64,000 nucleotides of DNA from Escherichia coli (GCF_016026235.1 NZ_CP065613.1); one strand, 5' to 3'; positions 6,362-25,828 are shown, counted from the stretch's first letter. Notes: generated by a model not told the origin, from the letters alone. A program made the numbers and translations.

Positions 6362-7177
<816 letters not shown>

Positions 7178-7281
7178 ATCAGCATACTTGTCCTTAGCCT
7201 TCTGCAGTGACAGCTGGTAGTACAGCGTGCTTCTGGCCAGCCCTGCAGCCTTTAACAGGTCAGACTGGCAGTGTCCGCACT

Positions 7282-7812
7282 TCAGGCTCTGGATGACTTT
7301 CGTTTTTTCTCCAGCTCCTGGCGCTTTTTTTCCAGGAGATGCTCCTGCATGGCTTTCAGATATGCATTTTCTGCGCGAAGATAACGCAGCTCATTCTTCA
7401 TCTCTTCCGGCGTCATGTTTCCCTCGTTTTCATGGGTATCATCAGAACGGGTCATGCTTTTCTCCTTCCTGCGCCTGATAAAGGCCTCATTACCAGATTT
7501 GCGGTAGCCTTTTATCCAGTTTTTAACCATGTTGTGGCTGAGAATGTTAAACCGGGCAGCTACCCGGGGTAGAGACTCAGAATGCCCGAGAGCATAAAGA
7601 ACCACGCAAAGTTTATCTTCAGGAGAATAGCTACGCTTGTGTCTGCAATCCAGTGCCTGAGGACCGTGAAGAAGAAAAAGATTAATCCAGTGTGAGAGGC
7701 TGGTGTGAGAAAGTTGAAAGAGTTTTGCCGTAGAAATGATGCCTGCATGACCGGCCAGGTAATGATTTACAGCGGCAAGTTTTACTTCAAATGAATGTTT
7801 CATAAACTGCAC
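7282..7812 (-). CDS. insJ: IS150 OrfA (HTH DNA-binding protein)
   Basis: 176 aa ORF MKHSFEVKLAAVNHYLAGHAGIISTAKLFQLSHTSLSHWINLF... recognised as IS150 InsJ. Confidence 0.9.
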   Translation of the reverse strand: MQFMKHSFEVKLAAVNHYLAGHAGIISTAKLFQLSHTSLSHWINLFLLHGPQALDCRHKRSYSPEDKLCVVLYALGHSESLPRVAARFNILSHNMVKNWIKGYRKSGNEAFIRRRKEKSMTRSDDTHENEGNMTPEEMKNELRYLRAENAYLKAMQEHLLEKKRQELEKKRKSSRA

Positions 7813-16528: not shown

Positions 16529-17479
16529 TCAGTAAGTCTCCGCAGGAGGGATGCCAAAGTCAGGCATCCCACTTTCATCCCAGCGAATCAATTTTAAGCG
16601 CGTATGGCGATTAGGATCGTACAGTGGATCGCCTTCTATTTCGGTGTAATTACGTGCGTGGTAGACCAGCACATCCTCACCCTCGGGCGTTTGGGTAAAA
16701 CTGTTATGTCTGGGGCCATACTGGCGATTTTCATAGCTGGTCGAAAAGACCGGACGCGGCGATTTATGCCAGTTCTCAGGCACTCTCGGGTCAGCGTCGA
16801 TGTCTATCCACAATAACCCCATGCAGTAGTTCTCGTCGGTAGCGCTGGCTGAGTAGCTGATGAATAACCGCTCGCCATGCATCACGACAGCCGGACCTTC
16901 ATTGACCCAGAATCCGCGACATTCCCAGTCATACTCCGGTTTGCTCAACATCACCGGCTCGCCTTTGATCGTCCACGGATTTTCCATTTCGGCCAGGTAA
17001 ATATTGGAGTTCCCGGCGATATCCGGTGCTTTTTGCGCCCACAAATACCACTGTTTACCCTGATGGTGAAAAGTGGTGGCATCCAGGGCAAAAGTATCAA
17101 ATGGTGTTTTAACTTGTCCTTTTTCAATCCACGTTCCGCTGAGCGGATCGGCATCACAACATTCAAGGGCAAACATCCGGTGCTGAAACATCCCCAGTTT
17201 GTCGAGCGCCTGAGTATGGGTGGCGGCAAAATAGATATACCACCGACCTGCAATATGATGCAGCTCCGGCGCCCAGATAAGTTCGCTCATGGGGCCGCTT
17301 TGCGGTTTACGCCACACCACGACAGGCGTGGCGCTGCGCAGCCCGACGAGCGAGTCTGCCCGGCGAATTTCCAGCCGGTCGTACTCCGGCACCGAGGCGA
17401 TAAAATAATAGTGGTTGCCATCGCGCAGTATAAAGGGATCGGCGCGTTGCTCGATAAATGGATTCGGCCAGTCTTGCAT
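16529..17479 (-). CDS. GH43-like glycoside hydrolase (predicted beta-xylosidase/arabinofuranosidase-type); accessory relative to K-12
   Basis: 316 aa ORF with ADPF and WAPE motifs typical of the five-bladed propeller GH43 clan; start overlaps the upstream transporter stop. Confidence 0.65.
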   Translation of the reverse strand: MQDWPNPFIEQRADPFILRDGNHYYFIASVPEYDRLEIRRADSLVGLRSATPVVVWRKPQSGPMSELIWAPELHHIAGRWYIYFAATHTQALDKLGMFQHRMFALECCDADPLSGTWIEKGQVKTPFDTFALDATTFHHQGKQWYLWAQKAPDIAGNSNIYLAEMENPWTIKGEPVMLSKPEYDWECRGFWVNEGPAVVMHGERLFISYSASATDENYCMGLLWIDIDADPRVPENWHKSPRPVFSTSYENRQYGPRHNSFTQTPEGEDVLVYHARNYTEIEGDPLYDPNRHTRLKLIRWDESGMPDFGIPPAETY

Positions 17480-18873
17480 TAGGCTTTCCTTACTGTTTCT
17501 ACAGCGTTTATTTCCTGATAGTCATTCAGTTCGCGGTAATTGGTGCGACGTTTTTCCAGATCGGTCTGGATGCGTTTCATCAGTTCGCGGTCTACTTTCA
17601 GTAGGCGGACGACGCCTGCGGTAATCAGATAGCCCACCCCAGGAATGACGGTAAAGAGCAGTACAATACCGTTAATCGCCGTGGCGCTTTGGGCTTTCGC
17701 ACCGGCATCGTAGCCGTACCATGAGAGCAGAAAGCCCACCATCGCCCCGGCAATGGCCAGGCCCAGTTTGAGGAAGAAAAGGTTACCGGAGAAGCTGATG
17801 CCGGTGATGCGTTTACCGGTTTTCCATTCGCCGTAGTCGTCGACGTCTGCCATCAGCGACCAGTGCAGCGGGGAGGGGATCTGGTGCAGAATGTTGAGCA
17901 CCACAATCATCACCGTGGCGTGCGGATTAAAGAAATAAAAGGCGCAGGAGAAAATTGCCAGCGCGATGTTGGTCCAGAAAAAGACTTTCAGTTTGCACCA
18001 GCGGTCGGTTAACACTTTCGCCAACATACTGCCGATCATCATTCCGACAACGCCGAGGCTAATAAAGAGGGTTGCAAACTGAGTACTCTCACCCATTACC
18101 CAGGTGACATAGTACATGGTTGCCGCCATGCGGATAAATCCAGGGCAGACGTTGCACAAGGTGAGCAGCAGAATGCGCACCCACTGATCGTTTTTCCAGA
18201 CATCTTTAAAATCGTTCTTCATGTCGTCATGGGTTTGTACCGCCGGGCGAATGCGCTCACGAACCGTGGCGAAACAGAACAAAAACATACACATACCGAT
18301 GATTGCCAGCACGGTCATAGCCAGCTGATACCCTTTCGCTTTGTCGCCGCCGCCAAATAGATCCACCATCGGCAATAGCGTCAGCGAGAGCAGAAGGGTA
18401 GCGATGCCCACCATCACAAAACGGTACGACTGGCAGGCCACGCGCTCTTGTGGGTCATTAGTAATCACGCCACCTAACGAGCAGTAAGGAATGTTAATGG
18501 CGGTATAGGTCAGGGAGAGCAGGAAATAGGTAACAAAGGCATAGATAACCTTGCTGCTATAGCTCCATTCTGGCGTGGTAAACATCAGGATGCTGAATAG
18601 CGCGTAGGGGAAGGCAATCCACAATAGCCAGGGACGAAAACGACCATATTTGCTTTGGGTGCGGTCGGCAATGGCCCCCATAATAGGGTCAGTGACGGCA
18701 TCGATAACCCGTACAGAGAGCAGTAATACGCCAACGAGTGCCGGGGCCAGACCAAAAATATCCGTATAAAAATAGTTAACAAACAGCATGATAGCGCCAA
18801 AGATGATGTTGCATCCTGCGTCGCCCATCCCGTAGCCGATCTTTTCTCTTACTGATAATTTACTGCTATTCAT
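17479..18873 (-). CDS. Glycoside-pentoside-hexuronide (GPH) family sugar:cation symporter
   Basis: 464 aa polytopic membrane ORF with MelB/GPH-like N-terminus GYGMGDAGCNIIFGAIMLFVNYFYTD. Confidence 0.75.
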   Translation of the reverse strand: MNSSKLSVREKIGYGMGDAGCNIIFGAIMLFVNYFYTDIFGLAPALVGVLLLSVRVIDAVTDPIMGAIADRTQSKYGRFRPWLLWIAFPYALFSILMFTTPEWSYSSKVIYAFVTYFLLSLTYTAINIPYCSLGGVITNDPQERVACQSYRFVMVGIATLLLSLTLLPMVDLFGGGDKAKGYQLAMTVLAIIGMCMFLFCFATVRERIRPAVQTHDDMKNDFKDVWKNDQWVRILLLTLCNVCPGFIRMAATMYYVTWVMGESTQFATLFISLGVVGMMIGSMLAKVLTDRWCKLKVFFWTNIALAIFSCAFYFFNPHATVMIVVLNILHQIPSPLHWSLMADVDDYGEWKTGKRITGISFSGNLFFLKLGLAIAGAMVGFLLSWYGYDAGAKAQSATAINGIVLLFTVIPGVGYLITAGVVRLLKVDRELMKRIQTDLEKRRTNYRELNDYQEINAVETVRKA

Positions 18874-19031: not shown

Positions 19032-20405
19032 TTAATGCGCTTTTACGGCTTTGGCGGTTTTCTCTTTAAACAGATAGCCGATACCTAACACGATCAGCCA
19101 TACCGGGATCAGGTATACCGAAATCGCCATTCCTGGGGTCATCAGCATAATCACCAGTACCGCCGCCATAAACAGCAGGCAGATCCAGTTACCCAGCGGA
19201 TAAAGCAGAGCAGGGAAGCGAGTTACCACGCCTTGTTCCTGCTTGGCGCGACGGAATTTCATATGCGCCAGGCTAATCATCGCCCAGTTGATCACCAGTG
19301 CAGATACCACCAGTGCCATTAACAGGCCAAATGCGGATTCCGGAGCAAGATAGTTAATCAATACGCACAATGCTGTAACCAGCGCAGACACCAGAATGGT
19401 GTTAACCGGTACGCCGCGTTTATCGACAGACGCCAGCGCTTTTGGCGCATTACCCTGTTGTGCCAGACCAAACAGCATACGGCTGTTGCAATATACGCAG
19501 CTGTTGTACACGGAGAGCGCCGCAGTCAGTACCACGATGTTCAGCGCATTCGCCACAAAGGTATCGCCTAACTCGTGGAAGATCAGCACAAACGGACTGG
19601 TATCGGCGGTAACGCGGGTCCACGGCATCAGTGAGAGCAGAACGGCTAACGAACCAATATAGAAAATCAGGATGCGGTAGATAACCTGGTTAGTTGCTTT
19701 CGGGATACTTTGCTCCGGGTTATCAGCTTCTGCTGCGGTGATCCCCACCAGTTCCAGACCACCGAACGAGAACATGATAATCGCCATCATCATCACCAGC
19801 CCGGTGAAGCCGTGCGGCAGGAAACCACCCTGATCCCACAGGTTGCTAACGCTTGCCTGCGGACCGCCGTTACCACTGAACAGCAGCCAGCCGCCGAAGA
19901 TGATCATCGCTACTACCGCAATAACTTTGATAATGGCAAACCAGAACTCCATCTCACCAAACACTTTTACGTTGGTCAGGTTGATGGCGTTAATCACCAC
20001 AAAGAACACGGCGGCAGAAACCCAGGTTGGGATTTCCGGATACCAGAACTGAATGTATTTACCCACGGCAGTCAGCTCTGCCATGGCAACTAAAACGTAC
20101 AGTACCCAGTAGTTCCAGCCAGAGGCGAAACCGGCAAAACTGCCCCAGTATTTATAAGCAAAGTGGCTAAAGGAGCCTGCGACAGGTTCTTCGACCACCA
20201 TTTCACCCAGCTGACGCATGATCAGAAAGGCGATAAAACCAGCAATGGCGTATCCCAGGATAATCCCTGGCCCTGCGGACTGTATTACGGAGGCGCTACC
20301 CAGGAATAGCCCTGTCCCTATCGCGCCACCCAGCGCGATAAGCTGAATATGGCGGTTTTTAAGGCCGCGCTTTAGCTGCTCGCCGTGCTGTTGACCTTCC
20401 ATCAT
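19032..20405 (-). CDS. aroP: Aromatic amino acid permease AroP
   Basis: 457 aa APC-family permease MMEGQQHGEQLKRGLKNRHIQLIALGGAIGTGLF. Confidence 0.95.
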   Translation of the reverse strand: MMEGQQHGEQLKRGLKNRHIQLIALGGAIGTGLFLGSASVIQSAGPGIILGYAIAGFIAFLIMRQLGEMVVEEPVAGSFSHFAYKYWGSFAGFASGWNYWVLYVLVAMAELTAVGKYIQFWYPEIPTWVSAAVFFVVINAINLTNVKVFGEMEFWFAIIKVIAVVAMIIFGGWLLFSGNGGPQASVSNLWDQGGFLPHGFTGLVMMMAIIMFSFGGLELVGITAAEADNPEQSIPKATNQVIYRILIFYIGSLAVLLSLMPWTRVTADTSPFVLIFHELGDTFVANALNIVVLTAALSVYNSCVYCNSRMLFGLAQQGNAPKALASVDKRGVPVNTILVSALVTALCVLINYLAPESAFGLLMALVVSALVINWAMISLAHMKFRRAKQEQGVVTRFPALLYPLGNWICLLFMAAVLVIMLMTPGMAISVYLIPVWLIVLGIGYLFKEKTAKAVKAH

Positions 20406-20982
20406 GAAACCTCGTGCGGTGATTGTTTTTTTGATCTACGCAGTGATGCGTGTGTAAGTTTGCAATTCCGTTTGTTGTATTGATTTCTTTACGTTTCATG
20501 TAACTGAATTATGATAATGCTACTTTTAACTATCACAAGATAATGGTATGTGCCCGGGAATGCACCTGCTTTATGTAGATGCGTTGATTTTTTGGATAAA
20601 AAAAAACCAATTGTAAGTTTTTTTCACATTTTATAGATACTTTAAGTAGGATAACATGCTGTTTTAACTAGCTATACTTGTCATTCTTCAAGTTACATGT
20701 GCTGCAACTCGAATTATTTAGAGTATATAAACCGGATTTATTTGCCTGCTGAACAACATGCCTTAGGTACCAGCACGATAATCTTACGAAATGCCATATA
20801 AAAATAAATAGATGTTAATAATGCAGTGGGCTTGTAACGTAAGTATTTAAATATAATATTGCGAGATGAGTGAAAACGTTAAGTAATAGAAATAATTTTT
20901 CATTAAAAGCGTTTATAATTGATCGAGAAATAAGTTTTCTATTTAATGGAAATAAGTTAAGGATAAACGGGAATAAAATAAA

Positions 20983-22764
20983 GTGAGCGATATTGTTTAC
21001 CTGAGAATAATCGGTGAGAAGCAGGGCGATATTTCTTCAGGCTGTGGGACGTATGCGTCGGTTGGTAATCGCTGGCAGGTTGGCCATGAAGATGAAATTT
21101 TTGCCTTTGCACTCACCAACGCCATTACCAGTACTGGTAATGGCGTTAATCTACAGGGGCTACAATTTTGCAAACTCATTGATAAAAGCTCACCGCTACT
21201 GTCTAATGCCATCAATCAGAATGAGCGGTTATTTATTGAAATCGATTTGTATCGTATAAATAAAAGCGGGCGCTGGGAACGGTATTATTATATTCAGCTA
21301 AGAAATGCTTCATTAACTGCTATTCATGTAAACATTTCTGACAATAATCTTCCTACCGAATGTGTAACTGTCGATTATCACTACATATTATGTAAACATC
21401 TAATAGCCAATACGGAATTTGACTGGTTGGCCTTTCCTGCTGGCTATAATAGCTTATTTATTCCGCCTAAAAGCCCACCTGCCAGTAATCTTAAGCCTGA
21501 ACCTCTACCAGTTGTTAACCTTCCACTCTCTTCACCAGCGGTTAACCCGGTCTATGCCAAATCCTGTCTGAAGGAGAAGGGATGTACAGATGCTGGAACG
21601 GCAGAAGAACCCGCTGAAAACTTCGGTCAAGTAGCGATTTTTGCTCAGCCAGTGGTTGATGACTGCTGTGGATACCACCATCCCGAGGCTAACGATGTCG
21701 GGCAACCCGCAGAAGCTCAAACCATGCTACTGTTTCCGGGTAGTGTGTTGGCGGCTCAAATATGGGGAAAATGGTCGCTCAGTGGCATACTCAGTGCAAC
21801 CCGCGGCTCTTACATCGGTGCGTTGGCATCTGCTTTGTATATTCCCTCTGCGGGCGAGGGCAGTGCTCGCGTGCTCGGACGTGATGAGTTCTGGTATGAG
21901 GAAGAACTGCGGCAGAAAGCACTAGCAGGCAGTACCGCCACCACCCGGGTACGTTTTTTCTGGGGAACTGATATTCACGGCAAGCCTCAGGTGTATGGTG
22001 TTCATACGGGTGAAGGTACGCCGTATGAAAACGTCCGCGTGGCGAACATGCAGTGGAACGAGCAGACGCAGCGTTATGAATTTACCCCCGCTCACGATGT
22101 CGATGGCCCCCTGATTACCTGGACGCCGGAAAATCCGGAACATGGGAATGTTCCGGGCCATACCGGTAACGACAGGCCGCCGCTGGATCAGCCCACCATT
22201 CTGGTGACGCCGATTCCGGACGGTACAGATACCTATACCACGCCGCCATTCCCGGTTCCTGATCCGAAAGAATTCAACGATTATATTCTGGTTTTTCCGG
22301 CGGGATCCGGTATTAAGCCCATCTATGTTTACCTGAAGGAGGATCCGCGAAAGCTGCCTGGTGTTGTAACAGGGCGCGGCGTCCCGCTTTCATCAGGAAC
22401 TCGCTGGCTGGATATGTCGGTATCCAATAACGGCAACGGCGCGCCAATCCCGGCGCATATTGCTGATAAATTGCGCGGACGGGAGTTTAAAACCTTTGAT
22501 GAGTTTCGCGAGGCGCTGTGGCTGGAGGTGAGTCAGGATCCGGAGTTGATAGCGCAGTTTTCAAGTGGTAACCAAACACGTATAAAACAAGGATTAACCG
22601 CAAAAGCACCTATTGACGGTTGGCATTATGGCCCTAAAGAAATAGTTAAAAAATTCCAGATACATCATCGTGTTGCAATTGAATATGGCGGCAGCGTATA
22701 CGATATTGATAATTTACGAATTGTTACCCCCAGACTACACGATGAGATTCACTACAGGAGATAA
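20983..22764 (+). CDS. Hcp (T6SS tube protein) fused to a C-terminal colicin E9-type HNH DNase domain (Hcp-ET class effector)
   Basis: N-terminal ~165 aa Hcp-like (LRIIGEKQGDISSG, GHEDE, SPLLSNAI, QLRNASLTAIHV); Pro-rich linker; C-terminal ~130 aa alignable with colicin E9 DNase (GAPIPAHIADKLRGREFKTFDEFREALWLEVSQDPEL ... HHRVAIEYGGSVYDIDNLRIVTPRLHDEIH); GTG start in an AT-rich leader. Confidence 0.85.
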   Translation: MSDIVYLRIIGEKQGDISSGCGTYASVGNRWQVGHEDEIFAFALTNAITSTGNGVNLQGLQFCKLIDKSSPLLSNAINQNERLFIEIDLYRINKSGRWERYYYIQLRNASLTAIHVNISDNNLPTECVTVDYHYILCKHLIANTEFDWLAFPAGYNSLFIPPKSPPASNLKPEPLPVVNLPLSSPAVNPVYAKSCLKEKGCTDAGTAEEPAENFGQVAIFAQPVVDDCCGYHHPEANDVGQPAEAQTMLLFPGSVLAAQIWGKWSLSGILSATRGSYIGALASALYIPSAGEGSARVLGRDEFWYEEELRQKALAGSTATTRVRFFWGTDIHGKPQVYGVHTGEGTPYENVRVANMQWNEQTQRYEFTPAHDVDGPLITWTPENPEHGNVPGHTGNDRPPLDQPTILVTPIPDGTDTYTTPPFPVPDPKEFNDYILVFPAGSGIKPIYVYLKEDPRKLPGVVTGRGVPLSSGTRWLDMSVSNNGNGAPIPAHIADKLRGREFKTFDEFREALWLEVSQDPELIAQFSSGNQTRIKQGLTAKAPIDGWHYGPKEIVKKFQIHHRVAIEYGGSVYDIDNLRIVTPRLHDEIHYRR

Positions 22765-22766
22765 AT

Positions 22767-23051
22767 ATGTTTAAAGAAAAGCTCCAGGATTATACCGAGG
22801 ATGAATTTCTTAATTTTTTAGGCGGATTGAGATCATCTATGAAAGATGGAAAATCCTTAAAAGGTAAGGAGCTAGAAATGTACTGGGATTCATTAGTAGA
22901 TCATTTTATTGAAATTACACAGCATCCGTCAGGGAGCGATCTAATTTTCTACCCTAAAAGTCAAGGAGATGATAAGCCTGAAAACATCCTGAAAATTGTC
23001 AAAGAATGGCGGCGTTCACAGGGGTTACCCTTGTTTAAAGACTCTAAATAA
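22767..23051 (+). CDS. Colicin-DNase immunity protein (Im9-like), cognate to the Hcp-DNase
   Basis: 94 aa; DYTEDEFLNFL ... ITQHPSGSDLIFYP ... resembles Im9 (DYTEAEFL ... TEHPSGSDLIYYP); starts 3 nt after the toxin stop. Confidence 0.85.
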   Translation: MFKEKLQDYTEDEFLNFLGGLRSSMKDGKSLKGKELEMYWDSLVDHFIEITQHPSGSDLIFYPKSQGDDKPENILKIVKEWRRSQGLPLFKDSK

Positions 23052-23204
23052 AGTAGATAATAAAACTATATATGGAACATCATCGCATCTGGCTAATGCG
23101 ATGATATTAATGACATAAAATAATAATGTGATTGCTCTTAAAAAACAGGTAAAAATACTGAAGCCTCATTAGGTTATTTTATCATTTTCCCGCTTTTACC
23201 GATA

Positions 23205-23458
23205 CCCTTTGGCTGGAGGTGAGTCAGTATCCGGAGTTGATAGCGCAGTTTTCAAGCGGTAATCAAACACGTATAAAACAAGGATTAATCGCAAAAGCAC
23301 CACTTGAAGGTTGGCATTATGGCACTAAAGAAATCGTTAAAAAATTCCACATGGATCATCGTGTTGCGATTGAATATAGTGGCGGAATTTACGATATTGA
23401 TAATTTAAGGAGGGCACACCTCATTTGCATGATGAAATTTATTACAGGAGATAGTTAA
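23205..23458 (+). pseudogene. Orphan HNH-DNase C-terminal fragment, no Hcp or linker, frameshifted at the 3' end
   Basis: Homology to the primary toxin begins abruptly at WLEVSQYPELIAQFSSGNQTRIKQGL...; the final HDEIYYRR motif is out of frame. Confidence 0.7.
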
Positions 23459-23749
23459 ATGTATAATTTTAAAGATAAAATAGAAGATTACACAGAGCGG
23501 GAATTCATTGAGTTGCTTGGCGAGTTTACAAATCCAACCGGGGATAACGCTCAATTAAAAGGGGAAGAGCTTGACAAATATTGGGATGATCTAGAAGAAC
23601 ATCTTACCAGAATTACACAACATCCGTTGATGAGCGATCTTATCTACTATCCTGCAAAGAAGGGAGATGATGAACCTGAAAACATCCTGAAAATTGTCAA
23701 AGAATGGCGGCGTTCACAGGGGCTACCCTTGTTTAAAGACTCTAAATAA
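23459..23749 (+). CDS. Orphan Im9-like immunity protein (variant 2)
   Basis: 96 aa; divergent N-terminal half, C-terminal PENILKIVKEWRRSQGLPLFKDSK identical to immunity 1. Confidence 0.8.
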   Translation: MYNFKDKIEDYTEREFIELLGEFTNPTGDNAQLKGEELDKYWDDLEEHLTRITQHPLMSDLIYYPAKKGDDEPENILKIVKEWRRSQGLPLFKDSK

Positions 23750-23901
23750 AGTAGATAATAAAACTATATATGGAACATCATCGCGTCTGGCTAATGCGAT
23801 GATGTTAATAACATAAAATAATAATGTGGGTGCTCTTAATAAACAGGTAAAATACTGAAATCTCATTAGGTTATTTTATCAATTTCCCGCTTTCACCGAT
23901 A

Positions 23902-24152
23902 CCCTTTGGCTGGAGGTGAGTCAGTATCCGGAGTTGATAGCGCAGTTTTCAACTGGTAACCAAACACGTATAAAACAAGGATTAATCGCAAAAGCGCCTC
24001 TTGAAGGTTGGCATTATGGATCTAAGGAAATTGTTGAAGAATTCCATATATATCATAGTGTTGCGATTGAATGTGGTGGCGAAATTTATTATATTGATAA
24101 TTAAAGGATTGTTACGTCTCGACTACATGATGAAATTCACTACAGGAGATAA
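23902..24152 (+). pseudogene. Orphan HNH-DNase C-terminal fragment with premature stop (TTA to TAA) before the terminal catalytic His motif
   Basis: WLEVSQYPELIAQFSTGNQTRIKQGLIAKAPLEGWHYGSKEIVEEFHIYHSVAIECGGEIYYIDN-stop, then in-frame RIVTSRLHDEIHYRR. Confidence 0.7.
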
Positions 24153-24448
24153 TGTATATGCATGATTTAAAATATAAAATATATTTTTACACAGAAGGTG
24201 AATTTCTTGAAATGCTTGAGGAGATAGTAAATGCAACTAGCAAAGATAAATCCCTAAAAGGGAAAAAATTAGAAAAATATCTCGATACCTTAGTGGATCA
24301 TTTCATTAAAATTACTGAACATCCTAAAAAGGGAGATCCCATTTTCTATCCTAATTCCCCAGAAGATGGTAAACCTGAAAACATCCTGAAAATCGTCAAA
24401 GAATGGCGGCGTTCGCAAGGATTGCCTTTGTTCAAAGATTCAGAATGA
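24152..24448 (+). CDS. Orphan Im9-like immunity protein (variant 3)
   Basis: 98 aa; conserved C-terminal PENILKIVKEWRRSQGLPLFKDSE, divergent N-terminal half. Confidence 0.8.
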   Translation: MYMHDLKYKIYFYTEGEFLEMLEEIVNATSKDKSLKGKKLEKYLDTLVDHFIKITEHPKKGDPIFYPNSPEDGKPENILKIVKEWRRSQGLPLFKDSE

Positions 24449-24855
24449 ACTCTAAACAGAATCTGTCACCTGAAAATCATCACGTTCTGGTTAAGTGATG
24501 ATTTTCGCTACGAGAAGGTTACGGTGGCGATTGTAGTGATAATAAGCAATGTAAAAAGAAAACATAGGTAAATACTACCTTTCTCTCCTTCCCTGAACAT
24601 TCATTTTACATATTAATTCACATAATTGAATTGTTATGCGTTTTGTTGCTTGGTGAATCGGTTCAGAGGAAATATTTTTTCGTTTCAATTCTGTTAATCT
24701 CACCCCTTGATGGGTAAATTTAACATTTGTGCATAGTTACAACTTTGAAACGTTATATATGTCAAGTTGTTAAAATGTGCACAGTTTCATGATTTCAATC
24801 AAAACCTGTATGGACATAAGGTGAATACTTTGTTACTTTAGCGTCACAGACATGA

Positions 24856-24872
24856 AATTGGTAAGACCAATT
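24856..24872. promoter_or_regulatory. PdhR operator palindrome AATTGGTAAGACCAATT
   Basis: Perfect inverted repeat matching the PdhR box, ~30 bp upstream of the pdhR start. Confidence 0.8.
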
Positions 24873-24903
24873 GACTTCGGCAAGTGGCTTAAGACAGGAA
24901 CTC

Positions 24904-25668: not shown

Positions 25669-25828
25669 TGATTTTTCTGGTAAAAATTATCCAGAAGATG
25701 TTGTAAATCAAGCGCATATAAAAGCGCGGCAACTAAACGTAGAACCTGTCTTATTGAGCTTTCCGGCGAGAGTTCAATGGGACAGGTTCCAGAAAACTCA
25801 ACGTTATTAGATAGATAAGGAATAACCC

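Follow-up and report, generated by a model that had tools for sequence, protein, structure and literature searches.

The window analysed here is a 64,000-nucleotide stretch of one strand from Escherichia coli (GCF_016026235.1, NZ_CP065613.1), with all coordinates counted from its first letter. Within it, the divergent genes aroP and pdhR are separated by 4,497 bp, compared with 540 bp in K-12, which bears out the original prediction, made from the sequence alone, of a spacer far longer than that of K-12. The same prediction had placed the start of pdhR at 24871, which corresponds to a TTG extension of the open reading frame; the true ATG lies at 24903. The spacer and its edges contain:

19032–20405, minus strand: aroP, divergent from pdhR
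20453–20493, no strand assigned: two TyrR-box-like sites in the native aroP control region, putatively weak (20453–20470) and strong (20476–20493)
20519–20549, plus strand: sequence corresponding to the aroP promoter P3, with −10 element TGGTAT (20544–20549) and −35 equivalent GCTACT (20519–20524)
20616–24640, no strand assigned: inserted DNA (PAIusp proper), delimited by blastn and global alignment to K-12 and by composition
24856–24872, no strand assigned: PdhR operator palindrome AATTGGTAAGACCAATT, native, intact and identical in K-12

Alignment to K-12 indicated that the insert stands in place of some 80 bp of the K-12 spacer. On the left side, homology to K-12 is strong up to 20492 and weak up to about 20615; on the right, it returns weakly at about 24615–24640 and strongly at 24714, so that both junctions are blurred by diverged flanks (20493–20615 and about 24615–24713). 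An island of ~4.4 kb had been predicted here: the insertion is real, but its size was overestimated, as only about 4.0 kb is foreign and about 470 bp is native. The PdhR operator lies in sequence 99% identical to K-12 and is undisrupted, as had been claimed. No tRNA gene was found in the 15–30 kb portion of the window, no integrase ORF in the insert and no flanking direct repeat; the locus thus lacks the hallmarks of a classical tRNA-linked pathogenicity island (tRNA site, integrase, direct repeats), as does PAIusp in published descriptions (PMC7142922).

Profiling of G+C content, suggested as a check, showed the spacer to be AT-rich relative to the rest of the 64 kb: 40.0% over 20406–24870 and 40.6% over the inserted part (about 20616–24640), against a mean of 50.0% (sd 2.4, minimum 45.0) for 4-kb windows elsewhere, with all 25 of the 25 lowest-G+C 500-bp windows falling within the aroP–pdhR spacer. 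The composition is uneven, dropping to 30.8% in the 577 bp 5′ of usp, the gene for an Hcp fusion, while the usp gene body is not AT-rich (48.6% overall, 55% in the segment encoding its inner-membrane-translocation (IMT) domain and 52% in the linker). The ~550 bp upstream of the Hcp gene had been described as extremely AT-rich and foreign; the low G+C holds, but the left ~210 bp belongs to the native aroP control region, because homology to K-12 reaches 20492 and, weakly, about 20615.

From usp to the right-hand junction, the island encodes the following:

20983–22764, plus strand: usp (= hcp-ET3-4), 593-aa evolved Hcp toxin with Pfam domains T6SS_HCP, Pyocin_S and Col-Pyo_DNase
20983–21420, plus strand: Hcp (T6SS tube) domain, aa 1–146, from Pfam, NCBIfam TIGR03344 and PDB Hcp matches
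21421–21906, plus strand: Pro-rich, Cys-containing linker, aa 147–308
21907–22332, plus strand: pyocin-S IMT domain (Pfam E = 2e-40; PDB 3MFB matches aa 307–452)
22360–22755, plus strand: colicin/pyocin-type HNH DNase, aa 460–591 (Pfam E = 3e-42)
22519–22764, plus strand: exchangeable DNase ‘tip’, type A, aa 513–593, starting at the conserved WLEVSQ motif
22767–23051, plus strand: immunity gene 1, class alpha, 94 aa (orfU2/imu type; Pfam Colicin_Pyocin, E = 7e-30)
23079–23105, plus strand: stem-loop (inverted repeat) 3′ of immunity gene 1 (−12.6 kcal/mol, z = −2.6)
23210–23458, plus strand: dead orphan DNase tip psi-1, from sequence comparison (RefSeq ‘hypothetical protein’)
23459–23749, plus strand: immunity gene 2, class beta, 96 aa (orfU3/imu3 type; Pfam E = 6e-28; class comparison)
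23774–23806, plus strand: stem-loop 3′ of immunity gene 2 (−17.7 kcal/mol, z = −4.3)
23907–24152, plus strand: dead orphan DNase tip psi-2, from sequence comparison (annotated ‘hypothetical protein’)
24152–24448, plus strand: immunity gene 3, class gamma (orfU1 type), 98 aa from 24152 or 96 aa from 24158 (Pfam E = 2e-26)
24471–24507, plus strand: terminal stem-loop with U-run (−16.8 kcal/mol, z = −2.65)

This insert is PAIusp, a small “pathogenicity island” of uropathogenic E. coli that has already been described. Published accounts place usp (with Hcp, pyocin-S and colicin-DNase domains) and imu1–3 between aroP and pdhR, the site of the island in all usp-positive genomes (PMC7142922); they give Usp a length of 593 aa (PMC2907695) and list UTI89_C0121 as Hcp-ET3-4 (PMC6730261). 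The window has the same site, a 593-aa three-domain protein and three small downstream immunity ORFs of 94, 96 and 98 aa, within the range for PAIusp (two to four ORFs of about 94–98 aa); UTI89 encodes a 97% identical Usp at this position, in the same gene order. With the islands of UTI89, Z42 and TA211 it shares the site, the 593-aa protein, three colicin/pyocin-type immunity genes and low G+C, and it differs in being a minority allele with a 53-bp extra leader segment and a different P3 −35. The island was thus real and correctly described, but already known. The prediction missed both the name and a 25-year literature (PAIusp, usp, imu1–3/orfU1–3).

Among complete E. coli genomes, usp is carried by 1,058 of 5,426, the aroP–pdhR site being empty in K-12 and most E. 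coli; this gene content is therefore not common to the whole species. Conservation of usp is 95–100% in 1,057 of the 1,058 carriers, only nine of which are at least 99% identical to the window over usp, and the exact window protein occurs on 29 contigs, whereas the UTI89 allele is on at least 1,000. Pseudogenes of usp occur in strains 1002W03 (frameshifted) and SCU-172 (5′-truncated).

The window usp frame is open over its full length and encodes a bona fide N-terminal Hcp domain (TIGR03344 score for the protein 124.7 bits, cut-off 58.9), 40% identical to the 159-aa Hcp that the nearest complete genome encodes in its T6SS-1 cluster, and a C-terminal toxin with an adjacent immunity gene. The linker (aa 147–308) had no Pfam or NCBIfam match. 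PDB matches of the DNase (E = 1e-26 to 1e-39) are to colicins E9 and E7, pyocins AP41 and S2 and klebicin G, with HNH residues aligned, and the catalytic residues H561, H562, N577, H586 and H590 are all present; Usp has DNase activity in vitro that depends on the HNH motif, as judged from mutants of the equivalent residues (PMC3685522). The same layout—N-terminal Hcp, C-terminal toxin, then immunity genes—characterises Hcp-ET1 to Hcp-ET5 (Ma et al., 2017), among which Hcp-ET3-4 is antibacterial and neutralised by its own immunity genes, according to Ma et al. (2017) as relayed in PMC6730261. Among Hcp-ET effectors, the window usp locus stands far from any T6SS cluster, with no T6SS genes within the 64-kb window. 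The ‘Pyocin S3 toxin domain’ of the Hcp-ET nomenclature is better regarded as an IMT domain without toxicity, the role assigned to the pyocin-S domain (PF06958) in a study that lists Usp among T6SS effectors (PMC9040868); Usp therefore has one toxin domain rather than two.

The island is built from three tandem modules of ~698 bp, spaced 691–699 bp apart, whose homology begins sharply at the W513 codon of usp, so that the tandem downstream modules share junction homology with the usp 3′ end, as in polymorphic-toxin loci. Between the immunity genes lie two ORFs annotated as ‘hypothetical’, each the defunct remnant of a DNase tip that has been displaced. Psi-1 carries H561D, a frameshift after the R579-equivalent residue and, in the old frame, H590Y, a lesion type also seen in UTI89 and four other strains; psi-2 carries H561Y and a TAA stop at 24102–24104 (L578*). 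Neither is an intact, recombination-ready orphan, each combining a His-to-Asp/Tyr change with a frameshift or stop. Strain A1.S1.65 retains an intact orphan tip A and pairs an active tip C with the gamma immunity class. Active tips in usp-positive E. coli are of type A (as in the window) in about 23%, type B in 52% and type C in 25%; 18 of the 81 residues distinguish tip A from tip B, most of them within the exosite that binds the immunity protein, yet one alpha immunity class (97% identical) accompanies both.

This arrangement resembles the orphan CT–immunity loci of CDI and Rhs systems (model: PMC4436062), in which tandem modules, each a promoterless toxin tip with an immunity gene, lie 3′ of a full-length toxin gene, with a short conserved swap-point sequence (here WLEVSQ) and a fused tip that varies by strain. 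Unlike in those systems, exchange affects not a whole toxin domain but just the C-terminal 81 aa of a single DNase fold, which comprise the exosite for immunity binding and the HNH motif, and both orphans in the window are pseudogenes. We suggest tentatively, at somewhat less than an even chance, that the immunity array is a fossil record of serial DNase-tip replacement. No such modular account was found in the accessible literature, which describes uspI/uspII and four orfU arrangements alone, although Parret & De Mot (2002) or Nakano (2001) may contain one.

The immunity proteins belong to the colicin/pyocin Im family, with the conserved helix-III motif DLI[F/Y]YP and PDB matches to the immunity proteins of pyocin AP41, colicins E7, E9, E2 and E8, and pyocin S2. 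Immunity protein 1 is presumably the cognate of tip A, while the gamma class lies directly 3′ of active tip C in other strains (class linkage in L005), and for the beta class none of the six loci examined supplies a live partner toxin. All three classes were present in every island subtype sampled. ORF sizes of 98, 97 and 96 aa in strain A1.S1.65 match published orfU1–3 (PMC3685522). A tight Usp–OrfU1 complex has been demonstrated (PMC3685522); one group saw no high-affinity binding between Usp and Imu and suggested protection by Imu3 through DNA binding (PMC3917654). The stem-loop at 24471–24507, not flagged by a simple terminator scan, is likely to mark the operon end.

For related alleles, usp transcription has been traced to P3, the native divergent promoter of aroP, with activation by TyrR, repression by H-NS and induction by urea and 37 °C; P3 is published as the sole usp promoter, and its −10 element was mutagenised (PMC7142922). 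An hns mutant has more Usp protein and higher E. coli usp-lacZ activity, and H-NS shifts a S. bongori promoter fragment in EMSA, the constructs for H-NS binding and repression coming from E. coli TA211 and S. bongori (PMC7142922). Horizontal acquisition and H-NS silencing, predicted here from AT-richness relative to the host, had thus been shown experimentally in 2020 in those alleles (PMC7142922). The island does lie between two regulatory regions, as claimed, but does not merely sit there, since in related alleles usp is driven by aroP P3 with TyrR. In the window, the TyrR-box-like region up to 20492 is 98% identical to K-12; the strong and weak assignments draw on fragment descriptions in PMC7142922, and the site at 20476–20493 differs from TGTAAA-N6-TTTACA at three positions, a match not significant alone. 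Relative to the tested 527-bp leader, the window aroP–usp leader has a 53-bp insertion and substitutions, two of them in the P3 −35 equivalent, which aligns as GCTACT in the window, AGTACT in UTI89 and AAGACT in K-12. Sequence correspondence suggests that P3 functions in the window allele; by extension from related alleles, its transcription would be raised by TyrR with aromatic amino acids, by urea and by 37 °C, and H-NS on the AT-rich leader would repress usp.

Taken jointly, we consider it probable that PAIusp is a polymorphic-toxin locus that entered the aroP–pdhR spacer by horizontal transfer, with a toxin delivered by a T6SS, countered in the producer by immunity protein and expressed from P3. 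Usp, the ‘evolved Hcp’ encoded by the island’s single large gene, would ride by its Hcp domain on the tube of a T6SS encoded elsewhere into a neighbouring bacterium, as reported for Hcp-ET proteins; the pyocin-S IMT module would then pass the toxin across the inner membrane, from the periplasm into the cytoplasm, probably by way of FtsH as for pyocin G and nuclease colicins, and there the C-terminal colicin-E9-like HNH DNase would degrade the prey chromosome. The producer would be shielded by the adjacent colicin/pyocin-family immunity protein, and the two further immunity genes, behind dead tip relics, most likely guard against other Usp variants, because the third belongs to the class cognate to active tip C of uspI strains. 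Against this reading count the absence of T6SS genes from the 64-kb window, the IS21-split tssC of the nearest complete genome, a 2015 review that found evidence for Usp secretion lacking (PMC4436062), the failure of one group to see high-affinity Usp–Imu binding, the reported genotoxicity to mammalian cells and the differences between the window leader and the tested one.

Parts of this architecture could also suit a diffusible, T6SS-independent bacteriocin of colicin or S-pyocin type, released and taken up via an outer-membrane receptor—Parret and De Mot’s original proposal, as relayed in PMC3685522 and PMC3917654. Klebicin G, colicin E9 and pyocins S2 and AP41 show homology to the C-terminal two thirds of Usp together with its immunity, and IMT and HNH DNase domains with aligned catalytic residues are shared with nuclease colicins and S-pyocins (ColE2/E7/E8/E9–Im, pyocins S2/AP41, klebicin G). 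However, Hcp replaces the delivery domain, leaving no receptor-binding or Tol/Ton outer-membrane translocation domain; the locus is chromosomal rather than plasmid-borne, with no lysis ORF in the island and no LexA box (CTGT-N8-ACAG, up to one mismatch) between 15897 and 27178; and the promoter is under TyrR/H-NS rather than SOS control. Without LexA box, lysis gene or receptor-binding domain, Usp is therefore not a classical colicin, and we regard this explanation as very improbable.

A stronger rival, though still unlikely in our view, is that Usp acts mainly as a host-directed genotoxin or virulence factor in urinary-tract or gut colonisation, the imu genes only protecting the producer. Usp is reported to be genotoxic to mammalian cells (PMC7142922; PMC9341358): it is described as a bacteriocin-like genotoxin that damages DNA and activates caspases in human cell lines, that enhanced infection in a mouse model and that is linked epidemiologically to pyelonephritis, prostatitis and bacteraemia (PMC7142922; PMC9341358; PMC4436062; PMC3685522), and its induction by urea and 37 °C fits such a role. 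Yet a eukaryotic target explains no part of the interbacterial-weapon architecture (Hcp carrier, an IMT domain specific to passage through a bacterial inner membrane, colicin-type immunity, extra immunity genes, alternative tips), and the literature documents no route by which Usp would enter host cells (PMC4436062). The two roles are not mutually exclusive. Delivery also bears on an improbable third explanation, that the toxin is undeliverable in the window strain and the island persists mainly because, as an immunity cassette or a self-addictive pair of toxin and immunity, it protects against neighbours that make Usp. In FDAARGOS_943, the nearest complete genome (99.9% identical over the locus), the aspV T6SS-1 sheath gene tssC is split by IS21; retention of three immunity classes in all sampled subtypes and the pseudogenes of 1002W03 and SCU-172 point the same way. 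Against it, window usp is full-length with all catalytic residues, near-universal conservation holds among carriers, and the tssC break was observed in the aspV cluster of a proxy genome.

If PAIusp is indeed a T6SS-delivered weapon with serially replaced tips, usp-positive lineages would be mutually immune, since three immunity classes are kept in every sampled subtype, and the weapon would bite only the ~80% of E. coli without the island. The aroP flank of the window is K-12-like and, unlike UTI89, has a GH43/GPH-symporter insertion on the other side of aroP, absent also from K-12.

The start codons of aroP (19032-20405, minus strand) and the divergent pdhR lie 4,497 bp apart in the window and 540 bp apart in K-12, in agreement with the original prediction of about 4.5 kb here as against a few hundred base pairs in K-12. 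The same prediction had pdhR begin at 24871, which proved to be a TTG extension with the frame unchanged; the annotated ATG is at 24903. When aligned with K-12, the left flank is 98% identical until 20492 and shows diverged homology to ~20615, and the right flank shows weak homology from ~24615-24640 and 99% identity from 24714 on, so that ~4.0 kb (roughly 20616-24640) is extra, standing in place of ~80 bp of the K-12 spacer. The native flanks at 20493-20615 (which takes in the aroP P1/P2/P3 promoter region) and ~24615-24713 have diverged from K-12 far more than the outer DNA (98-99% identical), a pattern that fits either co-transfer of neighbouring DNA or old change that was locally relaxed or adaptive. 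As predicted, the insertion leaves the PdhR operator undisrupted: its palindrome (24856-24872, AATTGGTAAGACCAATT) is intact and falls in sequence identical to K-12.

The insert is the well-known island PAIusp, which went unrecognised in the first reading of the sequence. PAIusp is ~4 kb long, carries usp together with the immunity genes imu1-3 (orfU1-3) and occupies the aroP-pdhR intergenic region in all usp-positive genomes (PMC7142922); the product, Usp (uropathogenic-specific protein), is 593 aa long (PMC2907695). We base the identification on the UTI89 locus, where gene order and site are as in the window and the protein is 97% identical, and on three cross-checks: the UTI89 spacer has the length of the published 527-bp aroP-usp fragment (PMC7142922); H314/H315/N330/H339 of the older 346-aa Usp (PMC3685522) correspond to H561/H562/N577/H586, given a start at M248; and strain A1.S1.65 shows, in order, the lengths of 98/97/96 aa published for orfU1-3. 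According to PMC6730261, the UTI89 gene (UTI89_C0121) is the ‘Hcp-ET3-4’ of Ma et al. (2017). The island, its protein, immunity genes, location, horizontal origin and H-NS/TyrR regulation have thus all been published already.

Among 5,426 complete E. coli genomes, usp is present in 1,058, always in single copy and always on the chromosome; K-12 and most strains have an empty site, and the gene content is therefore not common to all E. coli. The window allele is a minority variant (at least 99% identical in 9 of the 1,058 carriers, with the exact protein on 29 contigs) that has the architecture of the common alleles. A tRNA scan of 15-30 kb found none, so PAIusp is not tRNA-linked, and ORF and repeat searches of the island revealed no integrase, lysis gene or flanking direct repeat.

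Matches to domain and structure databases give the toxin gene the following layout:

20983-22764, plus strand: usp, a 593-aa ORF with three domains
N-terminal part of the product: Hcp/TssD domain (TIGR03344, 124.7 bits against a cut-off of 58.9; matches to PDB Hcp structures)
aa 309-450: pyocin-S domain PF06958, an inner-membrane translocation (IMT) domain (match to PDB 3MFB)
aa 460-591: colicin/pyocin HNH DNase (klebicin G, pyocins AP41/S2/S8 and colicins E9/E2/E7, E = 1e-26 to 1e-39)

None of the HNH residues H561, H562, N577, H586 and H590 is missing, and the Hcp domain is 40% identical to the T6SS-1 Hcp of the nearest complete genome, FDAARGOS_943. Between the Hcp and IMT domains lies a linker of ~160 aa (aa 147-308; 21421-21906), rich in proline and with the cysteine-containing motifs KSCLKEKGC and DDCCGYHH, which has no match in Pfam, NCBIfam or PDB. 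Downstream of usp, three ORFs of 94, 96 and 98 aa all encode Colicin_Pyocin immunity proteins (E = 1e-26 to 1e-30), homologous to those of colicins E2/E7/E8/E9 and pyocins S2/AP41, and two short ORFs between them (79 and 62 aa) match the C-terminal half of the DNase domain. RefSeq labels usp ‘type VI secretion system tube protein TssD’ and both short ORFs ‘hypothetical protein’, which hides a classic UPEC marker and a polymorphic-toxin array, a lesson in annotation for genome scans.

The insert has a G+C content of 40.6%, against a mean of 50.0% (sd 2.4, minimum 45.0) for the other 4-kb windows of the 64 kb, and all 25 of the lowest-G+C 500-bp windows fall within the aroP-pdhR spacer. Within 20983-24448, G+C forms a mosaic (Hcp part 40%, linker 52%, IMT 55%, DNase 47%, immunity array 35.5%), which suggests that the toxin gene itself was pieced together from differently derived parts. 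Horizontal acquisition with H-NS silencing, as originally proposed, is supported and has been published for related alleles by Rihtar et al. (2020), who likewise argued foreign origin from low G+C (PMC7142922).

Those experiments on related alleles established control by P3, TyrR and H-NS. The gene has no promoter of its own and is transcribed from the native divergent aroP promoter P3 (-10 TGGTAT); it is activated by TyrR with phenylalanine, and expression rises with urea and at 37-42 °C; H-NS represses it, an hns mutant having more Usp protein and more E. coli usp-lacZ activity, and H-NS binding was seen by EMSA on an S. bongori fragment (PMC7142922). The corresponding sites in the window are:

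20544-20549: -10 element of aroP P3, by homology to the published promoter
20453-20470 and 20476-20493: TyrR-box homologues, by homology with characterised K-12 sites

At the P3 -35 position the window has GCTACT, UTI89 AGTACT and K-12 AAGACT. Matches to the TyrR-box consensus were fewer across the window than expected by chance, and the assignment therefore rests on K-12 homology rather than on the scan. General scans were uninformative, with 14 promoter-like sites (13.0 expected) that missed the published P3, and three terminator-like sites (3.8 expected) that missed the terminal hairpin. The 577 bp from aroP to usp are 30.8% G+C, as AT-rich as had been claimed; since P3 and the TyrR boxes lie in the left spacer, however, the left ~210 bp of this region are native regulatory DNA. 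The island does lie between the aroP and pdhR control regions, as predicted, but it is tied into aroP control and not simply adjacent to it, a compact case of an acquired toxin operon that has taken over a promoter of its host (aroP P3/TyrR) and is damped by H-NS. In its leader the window allele has an extra 53 bp (~20681-20733) that neither UTI89 nor A1.S1.65 possesses. This segment lies downstream of the P3 start, in the part of the leader where other alleles reportedly have H-NS sites; because of this difference from UTI89, we carry the published regulation over to the window allele as an inference.

From the 3′ end of usp through the array run three tandem modules of ~698 bp, at a spacing of 691-699 bp, each comprising the last 81 DNase codons (the tip, aa 513-593), then an immunity gene, then a stem-loop (-12.6, -17.7 and -16.8 kcal/mol in order, the third with a U-run). 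The downstream copies become homologous to the full-length gene abruptly, at the W513 codon of the conserved WLEVSQ motif, so that the swapped unit is the immunity-binding exosite plus the HNH motif. Both downstream copies are dead:

23210-23458: psi-1, a dead tip with H561D, a frameshift past the R579 equivalent and H590Y
23907-24152: psi-2, a dead tip with H561Y and a TAA stop at L578

These lesions recur by class in UTI89 and four other strains, with the same frameshift or stop and H561 changed to Asp or Tyr. We did not find this reading of the orphans in the openly accessible literature.

Across six loci the immunity proteins fall into classes alpha (94-97 aa), beta (96 aa) and gamma (98 aa), in arrays of three or four modules of varying order. 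Live tip A occurs in the window and UTI89, tip B in three strains (18 of 81 residues differ from A) and tip C in A1.S1.65 (26 of 81 differ from A); junction queries among the 1,058 carriers gave ~552 B, ~265 C and ~241-244 A, counts that are approximate in that some junction matches join gene and orphan pieces. Tips A and B are paired with one immunity class, 97% identical, and no live partner for beta was present in the six loci sampled. In A1.S1.65, tip C is followed by gamma, and an intact tip A lies downstream as an orphan ahead of alpha, the arrangement that the displacement model for CDI/Rhs loci predicts (PMC4436062). The dead tip preceding gamma is A-like (79% to tip A, 58% to tip C), whereas the live partner of gamma elsewhere is tip C, which means that reassortment between tips and immunity genes has taken place as well. 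An en-bloc model, with each orphan the decayed cognate of the next immunity gene, is contradicted for gamma. Earlier work distinguished two types of usp, uspI and uspII, and four arrangements of orfU (PMC3685522); to this known kind of system our modular reading adds a modest refinement.

The architecture is most likely that of a contact-dependent interbacterial weapon, a compact case in which a T6SS carrier has taken up DNase and immunity modules of the colicin type. The Hcp domain would act as carrier for a T6SS encoded elsewhere, onto which it would be loaded in the window strain; the IMT domain would take the toxin into the prey cytoplasm, presumably with the help of FtsH; and the distal immunity genes would most likely guard against other Usp variants. 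PF06958 is an IMT domain common to nuclease bacteriocins and T6SS DNases, pyocin G reaches the cytoplasm only with this domain and FtsH, and Usp is among the listed IMT-bearing T6SS effectors (PMC9040868). On the same authority we reject the ‘Pyocin S3 plus colicin DNase’ description in the Hcp-ET naming, which makes PF06958 a second toxin domain. Experiments on related alleles have shown that the protein has DNase activity in vitro, dependent on its HNH residues, that Usp and the adjacent immunity protein form a tight, inhibited complex (PMC3685522) and, as relayed in PMC6730261, that Hcp-ET3-4 is antibacterial and neutralised by its own immunity genes (Ma et al., 2017). One group did not see the tight Usp-Imu complex and proposed DNA shielding by Imu3 (PMC3917654), and a 2015 review described evidence for Usp secretion as lacking (PMC4436062).

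Genotoxicity of Usp for mammalian cells has also been reported (PMC7142922, PMC9341358) and may coexist with an antibacterial role, but it leaves the Hcp, IMT and immunity-array features unexplained; the ‘genotoxin’ and Hcp-ET ‘antibacterial effector’ literatures, which show little mutual citation, meet in one protein at this locus. A classical diffusible bacteriocin is unlikely, given that there is neither a receptor-binding domain nor a lysis gene and that a motif search of the spacer found no LexA box, which counts against colicin-like SOS control. As to the delivery system that an interbacterial weapon of this kind would use, there are no T6SS genes within the 64-kb window. FDAARGOS_943, 99.9% identical over the locus, has a T6SS-1 cluster at tRNA-Asp (aspV), ~120 kb from the locus; its sheath gene tssC is split by IS21 and its effector region holds more IS elements (IS1, IS600, ISAs1), so that this T6SS-1 is probably inactive there. 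Pseudogenes of usp with the immunity array kept, frameshifted in 1002W03 and 5′-truncated in SCU-172, hint that immunity genes can outlive the toxin.

An Rfam search of 19-26 kb (E ≤ 1) found nothing credible inside the island; the only real match was the tp2 sRNA, a known family unrelated to PAIusp, which lies in the pdhR-aceE intergenic region antisense to the operon. A second strain-variable insertion (16529-18873, minus strand) separates aroP from ampE on the side away from PAIusp; in UTI89 the two are direct neighbours, and K-12 likewise lacks the inserted genes. These and one further feature of the window are:

25713-25826, minus strand: tp2 sRNA (Rfam RF02030, 103 bits against a gathering score of 50)
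16529-17479, minus strand: GH43 glycoside hydrolase
17479-18873, minus strand: GPH/MFS_2 sugar:cation symporter
6455-7812, minus strand: IS3-family insertion sequence between yacG and mutT, with two ORFs bearing HTH and rve integrase-core domains

The counterpart of this last element in the near-identical FDAARGOS_943 is annotated as an IS3 transposase with a programmed frameshift.
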